Source: a virus | Taxonomy: Duplodnaviria > Heunggongvirae > Uroviricota > Caudoviricetes | Length of the DNA stretch: 43,077 bases | Reading direction: 5' to 3' (one strand) | IMG/VR virus record: IMGVR_UViG_2563366968_000005 | Location: 1 to 43,077 of that record | In this document: positions 9,001 to 12,476 of the stretch, piece after piece | Layout: each line of letters begins with the position of its first letter | Numbering within the stretch: the first letter of the stretch is position 1 | Program-made: the position numbers

Positions 9001-12000
9001 TACCACGGAAGGTTGATAGCTGATTTCATCGCTTTATTTGCTTCAAGCCACATTTTGGAATCACCAATAAATCTGGCTATTACTGCTTTGTTCTGTGCAG
9101 CACGAAGCATCTGGTGATTAATGACTATTTCATTGCGCATAACGCCTCCAGTTGTTTCTTTGCTGCTCTGATTAATTGTTTAACACGGCGTGATAATTCA
9201 GATTCGTGCGGGTAGAAAGCGGACATGACGCCGCTACCCGCGAGCTGAAAGTGCATCATGGGTAACTCCTTATATTTGATTGCATAACGAAAACGCCTCG
9301 AGTGAAGCGTTATTGGTATGCATATAAAAAGGCCCTCACACGGGAGGGCAAAGAAGATTTCCAATAATCAGAACAAGTCGGCTCCTGTTTAGTTACGAGC
9401 GACATTGCTCACATAGCAGACTCGTAAATCTGCTATAGGCGCTTATTCGCATCGCATGACAACATCAAATTTTTCGAGATTACTTTGTCGCAACAATCCT
9501 TCTTCTACGCGGTCAGCTTTTCTATAATTATCAAATTCGAAATGTTTAATTACTTCTTTTGTTTCTCGCTCTATAACTTCAACGATGTATTTCTTATTCA
9601 TTATTCATCACCTATGGCTTTTTTGATAGCTTCGCTAGCCTTATTAACAGCTCCATACCATTCTGGATATGTTGTCGTTGTTCTATTTTTGGATTGCTTA
9701 AGTAATAACTGAAGTGCTTCGAGAAGGTCAGGTGCTGCCGCTATTAGATTGGCATCTTCAATACATTGAACTTCCTCACAGATTGCAATATACGAACGCC
9801 AGCCTGCGCCATTTTCAAGTGAGTCTGCCTGGATTATTTTAATCTCATCGCCATCCATCATTATTTCCCACTTACCTTCAGTACCTTTAAATTCCATGTT
9901 ATCCTCTGTTGTTTATGCCAAAAAACAAAGGCCACCATCAGGCAGCCTTGTTGTTCTGTTTACCAAGTTCTCTGGCAATCATTGCCGTCGTTCGTATTGC
10001 CCATTTATCGACATATTTCCCATCTTCCATTACAGGAAACATTTCTTCAGGCTTAACCATGCATTCCGATTGCAGCTTGCATCCATTGCATCGCTTGAAT
10101 TGTCCACACCATTGATTTTTATCAATAGTCGTAGTCATACGGATAGTCCTGGTATTGTTCCATCACATCCTGCGGATGCTCTTCGAACTCTTCAAATTCT
10201 TCTTCCATATATCACCTCAAATAAGTGGTTTGCTGCCTAATTTTATTTTCTGGCGACCAACACAAGTCATCTTGCTGTCAGCTGTTTGGATTTCCTGTAG
10301 CCTGCCGCGTAAAGAGCTACATTTGGAAGACATACACCAGTTTCTGGTTGCCTATGCCCAAACTCATTCGCGTACACAATGGCCGCTCTCTCCAGATTGC
10401 GTCTGTATTCTTTCTGTTGCCAGATCACGTCCTGTGCCATGAACTTAATTGGCTTAGCGTCTTCTATGCGCTCAGGCGTTTCGTGAGTACCTTTAGCCTG
10501 AATCTGCGCTCTGCTTAGAGTAGGGCGGTGTAATACTTCTGAACTTATTGCTTCTTCGCGGGCCAGTACGCCGTTAGCTAATGCCTTTGCCTTTAAACGC
10601 TCACGACGACGAGAACGTGAATTGCCTTTGAACTGAGTTCTGCGTGTCATATAGACCTCCTGATGAACTTTGGTGGTGTGGTAGGTGGGAGACCCATTTC
10701 GACCTGTTTCGGCCTACTTCAATTCGGCAATAGTCCCGCAGGCCTCGCCGCTTTACGTGCGACATATTCCCGTCCATGAACCCTTCACCACACCCCAAAG
10801 TTCACTTTGGTTATTGCGCTTTGTCAGCGCCGTAGATTCATATTCGAATCGTTGTATATTCACCGCCCTGGTGAGTAGTGCGTCCTGCTGATGTGTTTAG
10901 TATCACCGCCAGTGGTATTTATGTCAACACCGCCAGAGATAATTTATCACCGCAGATGGTTATCTGTATGTTTTTTATATAGATTTATTTTTTTGCAGGG
11001 GTGTGTGGCTTGGGAGGTGATCGAGAGATCTGAATTGCGATGTTTAGTGAGTTGTATCTATTAATTTTCAAATAAATACAATTGGTTATGTGTTTTGGGG
11101 CGAACGTGAGGCAAAGAAAACCCGGCGCGGTGGCCGGGTTTATTTATTGCTTAGGAGCTTGTTGTGATGACGATTGGTTAGTTGGAGCGCTCGTTAATGG
11201 TTGCTGTGTCGGTACCTGTATTATAATTGGAGCCGGGCTGGTTACTGATGGTGACTTGTCATTGCCGGAGATAATCCAACTTGAGGCTAACATCACGCCA
11301 GACAGAATCACAGTAACTAAAGTCAAGCCAACGGCCATCGCCCACTGAGTCGTTGTAAGTCCCGTTTTCAAACCGCCGATTTCACCTTTAATTTCAGCAA
11401 TACCTCTCTCAATAGAAGAAAATTGCTGAGTATAATAGGTTTTAAAGTCAGCTGATTCGCGACGCATTTCCGCAGCAATAGACTCTACCTCTGATTTGTT
11501 TTGTGAAAGCTTTGCGTCAAGTTCTTCTCTGGACATTCCGCTCACGCTTACCTCCAGGGTATCACTCTTCATCGCTACATCTTCCTTACTTGGGCGCAAA
11601 CCCGTTTCGTCCATGGCGTATGAAACTCTATTTGATACCTTAGCATCAATACCAATACTTTGGTACTGAGATGGATCCCCATAAGGAGAAACGGTTGTCG
11701 CTGCTAGGGTTGCACTAACTATAATACTTGGAAGAACTGATGATGTTGTTCCTGAGGTAGGTTGAACTGAAGAAACTGGCTTCAGTCTTTCCATAGCCCA
11801 TTATCCCTGAGAGCTACCTGTAATGATTTTACTAATGCAACAGCTTGATCCGGGCTCATTGAGACTGACATGTTAGGGGTCAACTCAACTTTTACTTGGA
11901 AGCTATTCTTTCCTTGCTCATCAGACTGCATGTGATGCTCAAATTCATGGCGGTAAAAAGTAATGATTGTTTCAGCACGATCAGGCGTAATAAGAACTGA

Positions 12001-12476
12001 TGTGGCGGTCATGTGCTGAGGTATGATTTTAATAGTGTTATCTGACATAAGTATCCTTTTTGTTTCCTTAGTATTTTTTTGCATTGACATCAGAAATAGC
12101 GAATCCACAAGAGTATGAGTAAAGCTAATCAGTTTAGTGATACGGTGACTATTAAAGTGGTAAACCACATCAAAGCTCGCAGAGTGCATACCAGGCTGTC
12201 ACACATGACAAAGTAACGAGGATGCCTGATCTCATAGCGCTCAAAGAGACATGCCGATAATGGCATTAACCACGCATGACGCCATAAACACGCCGCCAAC
12301 GATGAAGCTGGCTTGGTTCTTCCTGGTAGCGCCAAGAGTCAACAGAACCACTGAAAGGGCAAAAAAAGGTATCGCGATTATGCTGAACGTGTTCATGTTG
12401 ACCTCAACTTATTTCGATTCTCCATCACCCTTAATCCGCCGCCCCATGTGTTTGTTGTGATTCGTTGCTGGCCTTA

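Follow-up and report, generated by a model that had tools for sequence, protein, structure and literature searches.

A repressor-linked gene pair in the rexA–rexB slot of a lambdoid prophage: gp49–gp48 as a candidate exclusion or abortive-infection module

The 43,077-nucleotide (nt) stretch of Caudoviricetes DNA considered here (IMG/VR record IMGVR_UViG_2563366968_000005, positions 1 to 43,077; henceforth, the window) holds three minus-strand genes between cI and the tImm terminator, the place occupied in phage lambda by rexA and rexB; their products have 51, 88 (gp49), and 216 (gp48) amino acids (aa). The last two form a conserved pair, and gp49–gp48 is proposed, tentatively and at slightly less than an even chance of being right, to be a lysogen-expressed exclusion or abortive-infection module, in which an exchangeable specificity subunit would act together with a membrane effector tuned by a short isoform of itself. 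The rex slot is the textbook site of prophage exclusion, and its occupants in most natural lambdoid phages are uncharacterized; variants of the gp49–gp48 module occupy the same slot in several classic lambda-immunity phages, and the proposal lends itself to direct tests with Escherichia coli (E. coli) K-12 and the standard laboratory phage HK97. The genes themselves are not newly seen, being those of HK97 Gp48 and Gp49 deposited with the HK97 genome, and the raw observation is not new either, the cassette and its position being already in public records. The following were found described nowhere: a repressor-linked family of about 200 clusters, a partner and an N-terminus that co-vary on a constant tail-anchored body, and a conserved internal start. 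If the module is a defense system, it would represent a new effector type, a tail-anchored coiled coil, as well as a simple natural example of sensor-specificity exchange; if it is not, it is still a conserved repressor-linked membrane module in lysogeny.

The replacement of rexA and rexB is bounded by exact breakpoints of lambda homology. Lambda 37231–38255 (cI, oR, and cro) aligns with window 12478–13502 at 97.7% identity and free of insertions or deletions, and lambda 35550–35826 (oL/pL to tImm) aligns with window 10860–11140 at 89.7% identity, so that the breakpoints fall at 12477/12478, the cI stop codon, and at 11140/11141, the tImm terminator. Because the lambda matches end at 11140 and resume at 12478, the three genes lie in an exact swap for the rexA–rexB segment, with 11141–12477 (1,337 base pairs, bp) standing in for lambda 35827–37230, i.e., the cI–rexA spacer, rexA, and rexB. 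An initial annotation of the window had recognized this replacement between cI and the pL/N region and had placed minus-strand open reading frames (ORFs) at 12241–12396, 11782–12048, and 11144–11794, the last two overlapping by 13 nt; all three were recovered there, on the cI strand, with the overlap at 11782–11794. Its further statement that none of the products resembles RexA or RexB also held, since only chance-level BLASTP matches (E > 1) and no profile hidden Markov model (HMM) matches were obtained. The terminator-like hairpin that it had noted at the end of the cassette lies at 11118–11141, precedes a minus-strand T-run, and is the counterpart of lambda tImm; this structure closes the cI operon together with the cassette, forms the left edge of the replaced segment, and is annotated as Timm in mEp234, HK544, and HK542.

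The gene for cI is presumed to be the first of a pRM operon that continues into the cassette, with pRM as the presumed source of cassette transcription in the lysogen. No convincing promoter or terminator is predicted inside the cassette; for instance, the 192-nt spacer at 12049–12240 contains no detectable promoter (cf. lambda pLit), terminator, small RNA, RNA family, or stable fold (fold z-score +1.3), and a weak hairpin at 12251–12266 was dismissed as a terminator, having only 5 pairs and a poor T-run. From these predicted signals, the cassette is most likely co-transcribed with cI from pRM in the lysogen, ending at tImm.

In the pair itself, gp48 is proposed to be the effector. It has no signal peptide, and AlphaFold2 (107 sequences) models it as a helix at residues 89–137 (predicted local distance difference test, pLDDT, > 90), a break, and a membrane helix at 144–178, with residues 1–88 and 179–216 disordered. 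The initial annotation had described a helical N-terminal region, one transmembrane helix, and a tail rich in Ser/Thr/Pro/Gln; the transmembrane helix (residues 150–177) and the tail were confirmed, whereas the helical part is central (residues 89–137) rather than N-terminal. Hydropathy gives two, zero, and one membrane helices for the 51-, 88-, and 216-aa proteins, respectively, in agreement with the earlier description of the first as a double-helix membrane peptide and of the second as soluble. The most conserved juxtamembrane motif of gp48, (IDG)LKTxxxTTQW, precedes the membrane helix, and the PIIIQVPxQQ motif of the tail is kept in many family members and absent in some, e.g., in a Klebsiella type ending in IPGIDKLL.

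An exhaustive profile search of 1.84 billion representatives returned 203 clusters of gp48 relatives at E ≤ 1e-3 and 105 at E ≤ 1e-10, as against only 11 clusters from a word-indexed search. Apart from two long multi-repeat outliers, the family members are 90–370 aa long and follow one plan: an N-terminal region that varies (median 72 aa), a conserved helix beginning S-R-E-E-L-D-A-K-L-x-x-N-K-A-E-V, a variable number of IDGK/GxxG repeats, the sequence IDGLKTxxxTxQW, a single membrane helix, and in many cases a Pro/Gln tail containing PIIIQVPxQQ. The Pfam match of gp48 to the CCDC90-like/DUF1640 family (PF07798) reaches 12.6 bits (E = 0.12), below the gathering score of 33.5; weak PF07798 matches occur in 50 of 107 relatives (best 2e-8), and matches to Baculo_PEP_C are equally frequent. 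Both kinds of match are read as coiled-coil bias, which supports the architecture and not family membership. The body composed of coiled coil and membrane helix probably oligomerizes.

The smaller protein, gp49, is proposed as the specificity subunit that would dock on the gp48 N-terminus. Its 88-aa start is in-frame within a 135-aa ORF and has AAGGA 5 nt upstream, and 88-aa homologues agree with it; longer starts (102 or 135 aa) were rejected on the ribosome-binding site and on the N-termini of homologues. Pfam-type searches detected no DNA-binding or other regulatory domain in gp49, and a resemblance to DUF3467 or SecB-like small beta-alpha proteins, considered as a possible fold, was dropped, as no Pfam match appeared even at E ≤ 10. 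Of the sequence-homology and structure-based searches suggested in the initial annotation, the former placed gp48 (residues 20–210, E = 9.6e-69) in PHROG 5820 and gp49 (E = 2.7e-62) in PHROG 26809, both families of unknown function, whereas Foldseek of the gp48 model, which consists of two helices only, returned 0 matches in the PDB.

Evidence for a specificity module comes from the manner in which partner, N-terminus, and body vary. When the N-termini of 101 family members are compared (BLASTP E ≤ 1e-3), they fall into 52 clusters, while the C-terminal bodies are all homologous. Context, partner, and N-terminal comparisons were made for 17 loci; among the locus pairs, 11 share both the partner class and the N-terminal class, 2 (both involving HK544) share the partner class only, none shares the N-terminal class only, and 123 share neither. 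Homologues of gp49 (45–66% identity) are always found immediately upstream of a gp48-type gene with the N-terminal motif SATLAATT..PYG, and the large proteins with this motif alone carry gp49 homologues (45–56% identity), namely in HK97, Klebsiella phage ST15-VIM1phi2.1, and a metagenomic locus; a gp49-type partner was predicted from the motif of the relative P0063 before its locus was read, and the prediction was borne out. The bodies within this gp49 class are only 20–35% identical, and the HK97 body is 64% identical to that of a Yersinia member with a different partner and a different N-terminus. Because the identities decouple in this way, the partner with its docking segment and the body with its coiled coil and membrane helix are exchanged separately at the conserved SREELDAKL junction, which is what one would expect if diversifying pressure acted on a specificity module coupled to a constant effector. 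Among the partner classes are gp49-like proteins, proteins with zinc-ribbon-like Cys-x2-Cys pairs, and a 144-aa class read as beta-rich from its sequence.

A second recurrent feature of gp48 is a candidate internal translation start, in which GGAGG is located 14 nt upstream of an ATG at 11534–11536 (Met87). The short form from Met87 would comprise the coiled coil, membrane helix, and tail only. A Met is found 4–9 residues before the SREEL motif in 87 of the 101 members with an N-terminal extension, compared with 13% expected from Met frequency. At 10 of 15 loci the ribosome-binding sequence before the internal ATG ranks in the top 0–15% of the in-gene background, and in 9 of those 10 it is stronger than that of the annotated start; a Xenorhabdus example reads AAGGAGG. 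Natural short-only family members also exist (P0020 and locus L046). These features suggest a short gp48 isoform that would lack the docking segment.

The family is linked to prophage repressors. In 11 of the 17 loci the gp48-type gene is directly downstream of a prophage repressor on the same strand, and the repressor is of S24/LexA type or annotated as cI in 10 of these and a short helix-turn-helix protein without an S24 domain in the remaining one (L049). Only a small partner ORF (84–147 aa) separates the repressor from the family gene, except in the window, with its 51-aa gene, and in L006, with two more ORFs; the partner ORF often overlaps the family gene, by 4–47 nt. The repressor-adjacent pair recurs in Yersinia, Kosakonia, Klebsiella, and E. 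coli phages. Three loci of a Xenorhabdus type adjoin arc/ant-type genes, the position at which P22 carries sieA and mnt and which is likewise expressed in lysogens. The last three comprise L046, beside a gene that appears antirepressor-like on sequence reading, one locus near a CP76-type regulator, and the poorly annotated locus of Klebsiella phage 6 LV-2017 with a C2 repressor upstream.

The window cassette is 99.7% identical to that of HK97 and 99.8–99.9% identical to those of HK225 and PDP110P1, and the window overall is a different mosaic lambdoid prophage, not HK97. By tblastn, gp48 is 100% identical to HK97 Gp48; gp49 is 98.9% identical to HK97 Gp49 and 100% identical to the HK225 protein, and the HK97 annotation gives no function for either. 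Of 5,426 complete E. coli genomes, 52 contain the full cassette, with identities that never fall below 99%, and it is also found in 21 IMG/VR contigs; near-identical DNA counts in the same genomes are 49 for the HK542 type, 93 for the distant HK544 type, and 99 for lambda rexAB. Repressors of at least three types adjoin the cassette, namely lambda cI, a repressor of 231 aa whose DNA-binding half differs, and the HK225 type, beside which the spacer 12397–12473 also travels with the cassette. At three IMG/VR loci (L029, L035, and L041), the upstream 231-aa repressor has an N-terminal DNA-binding part unlike lambda cI and identical last residues, which suggests that recombination took place within the repressor gene and that the cassette moved together with the cI C-terminal domain. 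A 100%-identical cassette also occurs in a decayed prophage of E. coli MS 119-7 (L003, NZ_CP146653, 1–6371), in which N is a pseudogene and IS100 and IS3 flank the immunity region, while no damage is seen in cI, cro, cII, or the cassette; selection may have retained the immunity block and its accessory genes there.

In the mechanism that we infer, together with the co-transcription, membrane topology, gp49–gp48 binding, short isoform, and any anti-phage activity, gp48 would be anchored in the inner membrane by its C-terminal helix, with about 150 residues in the cytoplasm and the short Pro/Gln tail in the periplasm, and its coiled coil and membrane helix would form a constant, oligomeric effector body. 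The disordered N-terminal 86 residues would dock the small cytoplasmic gp49, which would set specificity, either by restraining the effector or by activating it on a component of a superinfecting phage, and the short Met87 isoform, devoid of the docking segment, would co-assemble through the coiled coil to tune the activity threshold. Once activated, gp48 would depolarize or permeabilize the membrane or block a membrane-dependent step, and the outcome would be exclusion or abortive infection, a role similar to that of RexA/RexB performed by unrelated proteins. A more far-reaching proposition, which must be called doubtful, is that gp49/gp48 represents an unrecognized and widespread class of prophage immunity-region defense with a constant membrane effector (long and short isoforms) and an exchangeable sensor cassette, whose new specificities would arise by recombination at SREELDAKL and whose HK97, HK542, and HK544 variants would together outnumber RexAB in the slot in E. 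coli.

Several points weigh against a defense role. Literature searches (by accession, gp48/gp49, HK97 lysogen, HK/mEp phages, and repressor-linked defense) found no functional study of these proteins, and searches of the three proteins and their profiles against Pfam (gathering score), NCBIfam, PADLOC v2, and PDB sequences returned nothing significant; PADLOC-DB v2.0.0 (2023), which covers systems up to 2023, likewise gave no significant match, whether to the three proteins or to the ten relatives and partners that were also searched. Matches to PDC-S52 (13.7 bits, with the 135-aa extension of gp49), AP5B1_C, and PspC-TM were dismissed as effects of chance or composition, and HepS and Tai were set aside as unrelated. 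In addition, gp48 contains no enzymatic or recognizable pore domain, and its architecture fits a scaffold, an anchor, or a regulator too. The AlphaFold2 model of gp49 (3 sequences; pLDDT 47) is unusable and offers no fold pointing to a sensor, and co-variation of the partner and docking segment is equally expected for toxin–antitoxin or regulator/anti-regulator pairs. Co-transcription with cI is an assumption drawn from the absence of predicted signals, the conserved Met could be structural rather than a start codon, and 5 of the 15 loci lack the internal-start signal.

The first rival explanation is an addiction module resembling a toxin–antitoxin system, in which gp48 is a membrane toxin and gp49 a proteic antitoxin bound to its N-terminal segment, stabilizing the prophage or killing cells that lose it, with no dedicated phage sensing. 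The arrangement of a small upstream gene translationally coupled to a larger downstream one (the 13-nt overlap here and overlaps of 4–14 nt elsewhere) and the strict cognate co-variation of partner and N-terminus are consistent with type II toxin–antitoxin pairs in gene order and overlap, and the same slot holds hicAB in mEp234 and HK106. However, short-only forms exist, among them L046 without an overlapping partner, and would be lethal if the body alone were toxic; the conserved internal start would yield a toxin that could not be neutralized; and the 52 N-terminal classes exceed the usual needs of plasmid or prophage addiction. This explanation is considered improbable, and it overlaps with the exclusion or abortive-infection reading to the extent that many toxin–antitoxin systems act as abortive infection.

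It is likewise improbable that the module serves the life cycle of its own phage, tethering or sequestering gp49 at the membrane as an anti-sigma factor would and so modulating the lysis–lysogeny switch, induction, or lysis timing. The tight linkage to many repressor types, a cognate binding pair as judged by co-variation, and the zinc-ribbon-like Cys-x2-Cys pairs of one partner class would all suit such a function, and RexA is reported to bias the lambda switch (PMC11077077; bioRxiv 10.1101/2021.04.19.439022). Nevertheless, the module moves freely between repressors of differing specificity at > 99% identity and hence is not matched to any single switch; no DNA-binding or regulatory domain is detectable in gp49, and the hypervariability suggests a target that is external and evolves fast.

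Superinfection exclusion at the entry step is rated lower still: here the periplasmic PIIIQVPxQQ tail of gp48 and/or the 51-aa protein would block DNA injection, as HK97 gp15 and P22 SieA do. Both are predicted inner-membrane proteins from lysogenic slots, the tail motif is conserved in many members, and the 51-aa gene, like that of YebO-derived HK97 gp15 (PMC3594210), is of chromosomal small-membrane-protein origin. Most of gp48 (about 150 aa), its partner, and the variable, specificity-bearing parts are nonetheless predicted on the cytoplasmic side, and some family members have no periplasmic tail. Finally, the notion that the ORFs are unexpressed leftovers or mis-called frames without function, which might be prompted by inconsistent annotation (the 51-aa gene absent in HK97 and opposite-strand in HK225; gp49 given as 88, 102, or 135 aa), is essentially refuted by ORF lengths and sequences conserved across genera, a ratio of nonsynonymous to synonymous substitution rates (dN/dS) of 0.074 for the 51-aa gene, the 203 gp48 clusters, conserved synteny, and a ribosome-binding site before each start.

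Among known systems, RexA/RexB is the natural comparison for the proposed exclusion or abortive-infection module: both occupy the slot from the cI stop codon to tImm on the cI strand, both comprise one cytoplasmic and one inner-membrane protein, and their prevalence in E. coli is similar (99 genomes for rexAB vs. 52 for the cassette). Nevertheless, there is no sequence similarity between them, and no Rex family appeared in the Pfam scans. RexB spans the membrane several times. It is a membrane protein of 144 aa, whereas gp48 has a single membrane helix, a tail anchor, and a long coiled coil; RexA has 279 aa and binds DNA, whereas gp49 has 88 aa and no recognizable domain, and the swapping of N-terminus and partner and the probable nested short isoform belong to the gp48 family.

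SieB of P22 and lambda is also a prophage-expressed, membrane-associated exclusion gene near the immunity region. Ranade and Poteete reportedly described in 1993 that one SieB ORF yields both the full-length protein and an in-frame, N-terminally truncated modulating product (Esc), an arrangement of nested products that is the same as that proposed for gp48 Met87, where the short isoform is predicted from sequence features. SieB differs in being a single gene without a partner, to the left of N and not in the cI operon, and no BLASTP or HMM match to lambda SieB and no SieB family in the Pfam scans were obtained. BstA of BTP1 and other prophages resembles the pair in its position directly downstream of the repressor, presumably with a shared promoter, and in its conserved synteny across genera (PMC8585504); however, it is one large cytoplasmic protein, associated with DNA and accompanied by an aba DNA element for self-immunity, and has neither a membrane anchor nor a partner, and no sequence relationship was detectable in PADLOC v2, whose models may or may not cover BstA.

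The succession of a coiled coil and a single C-terminal membrane helix (AlphaFold2 and hydropathy) is shared with CCDC90-like/DUF1640 (PF07798) and XhlA-type proteins, which differ in having no variable N-terminus or partner system. XhlA of the Bacillus prophage PBSX takes part in membrane-level lysis. Dual-start holin/antiholin genes, which belong to a late-expressed lysis cassette with an endolysin, differ from gp48 as well, since gp48 lies in the immunity operon between cI and pL and not with lysis genes. The features of the locus are collected in Table 1; a promoter of pR type is predicted at 13235–13263.

Table 1. Features of the immunity region of the window, with the segments of gp48 (coordinates in the window)
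Feature	Coordinates	Strand	Basis and remarks
pL promoter, with oL operators around it	10899..10927	-	TTGACA-17-GATACT; within the 89.7% lambda match; start of the lambda-like early-left region
tImm-type intrinsic terminator	11110..11141	-	9-bp stem with 6 G-C pairs, then TTTTCTTT on the minus strand
gp48, 216 aa, tail-anchored inner-membrane coiled-coil protein	11144..11794	-	HK97 Gp48; PHROG 5820; AlphaFold2; topology predicted
gp48 residues 179–216, presumably periplasmic tail	11147..11260	-	66% Ser/Thr/Pro/Gln; PIIIQVPxQQ motif
gp48 residues 150–177, single membrane helix	11264..11347	-	hydropathy peak 2.25; AlphaFold2 helix 144–178
gp48 residues 89–137, conserved coiled-coil helix (SREELDAKLSQNKSEVESIAAEMRRE...)	11384..11530	-	pLDDT 90–96; invariant or near-invariant columns here
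Candidate internal translation start	11534..11555	-	GGAGG 11551–11555, ATG (Met87) 11534–11536; predicted 130-aa short isoform
gp48 residues 1–86, hypervariable predicted-disordered N-terminus	11537..11794	-	pLDDT < 60; carries the motif LPSIIVSATLAATTVSPYG, co-varying with gp49
gp49, 88 aa, soluble small partner	11782..12048	-	HK97 Gp49; PHROG 26809; no membrane helix
Spacer between 51-aa gene and gp49, 192 nt	12049..12240	-	39.6% GC; E. coli copies always linked to the cassette
Gene for 51-aa hairpin membrane protein	12241..12396	-	two hydrophobic helices with a short RKNQ loop between them
Spacer between cI and 51-aa gene	12397..12473	-	cassette sequence, not lambda; TGAGGT ribosome-binding site 4 nt before the ATG at 12396
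cI repressor, lambda type, 237 aa	12474..13187	-	ORF; annotated as cI in HK97 and lambda
oR3-oR2-oR1 operators with pRM (leftward) and pR (rightward)	13198..13261		coordinates mapped from the lambda annotation via the indel-free alignment

The 51-aa gene stands apart from the pair. The initial annotation had treated the three genes as a single cassette in which a small soluble protein accompanies a membrane effector; the soluble and membrane pair is real and conserved, whereas the single three-gene unit does not stand, as the 51-aa gene has chromosomal homologues and is missing from all other gp49/gp48-type loci, i.e., from every other locus with a gp48 relative among the 17 read. Relatives of the 51-aa gene are stand-alone chromosomal genes in Atlantibacter (near pmrD) and Lelliottia (between a RIO1 kinase gene and yceI), and a Kosakonia relative adjoins phage tail genes. 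Because these relatives stand alone and the other gp48-type loci are without it, we read the 51-aa gene as a separate capture from a chromosomal enterobacterial family, one that would be functionally independent of gp49–gp48. Its family comprises 36 clusters at 90% identity, nearly all of exactly 51 aa and 67–98% identical; its dN/dS value denotes purifying selection, and the DNA that it shares with distant loci extends no further than the ORF at either end, features by which the ORF is judged to be a real gene.

The 51-aa gene is annotated by PGAP in some genomes and in neither HK97 nor HK225. Two hypothetical plus-strand ORFs that HK225 annotates across the 51-aa gene and the spacer (L002, 4007–4108 and 4152–4352, corresponding to window 12251–12460 on the plus strand) were rejected as an alternative, because the homology to distant loci coincides exactly with the minus-strand 51-codon ORF and dN/dS in that frame is 0.074; they are probably mis-annotations. 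The antisense frame over the gene is uninterrupted in distant homologues too, a frequent occurrence opposite hydrophobic ORFs. In Atlantibacter (L013/L014, 3501–3656) and Lelliottia (L015, 1851–2006), the relatives form a conserved, unannotated small-membrane-protein family with the sequence MNTFSIIAIPFF...RKNRA.FIVGGVFMAS.VVNAVIG. HK97 gp15, a prophage-expressed superinfection exclusion protein derived from chromosomal YebO (PMC3594210), offers a likeness in being a small inner-membrane protein of chromosomal small-protein origin from the same phage lineage; it nonetheless belongs to another protein family and is located in the tail operon, and an exclusion role of the 51-aa protein is only putative.

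Other occupants of the rex slot were also observed. The interval between cI and N is described in the literature as a mosaic hotspot housing RexAB and BstA (PMC8585504), and slot variability has already been documented (Degnan 2007, as cited in PMC8585504 and PMC7067206). The lambda-immunity phages deposited by Degnan et al. differ in what fills the slot. HK542 and HK244 carry a clear family pair, c105 (144 aa) and c104 (206 aa). In HK544 (L023, EF120455, 1182–2021), the slot holds HK544c104 (93 aa) and HK544c103 (183 aa, a coiled coil with a C-terminal membrane helix), whose annotations note a similarity to ECs2991/ECs2992 of O157 Sakai and which give weak profile matches of 13–15 bits to the gp49/gp48 alignments; the N-terminus of c103 is similar to the largest of the N-terminal classes in the gp48 family, and c104 groups with the Yersinia enterocolitica partner. 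On these sequence comparisons, the HK544 pair is probably a distant branch of the gp49–gp48 module.

In Yersinia intermedia (L006), two paralogous ORFs (3746–4144 and 4284–4691), each coding for about 133 aa with a membrane helix at the N-terminus, lie between the repressor and the pair of partner and gp48-like genes; neither has a Pfam or PADLOC match, and they could be a further accessory unit stacked in the slot. In mEp234 (L022, EF120460, 1252–2382) and HK106, the slot contains hicA–hicB, a recognized toxin–antitoxin pair at the rexAB position, with a 141-aa hypothetical ORF. Lastly, the tImm region of the window (11104–11152) matches, at about 91–93%, the 3' ends of genes annotated for DUF1828 domain proteins in many E. 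coli prophages (among them those of UTI89, Nissle-type, and ATCC 25922), and the DUF1828 gene looks like another cassette type sharing both the terminator and the slot.

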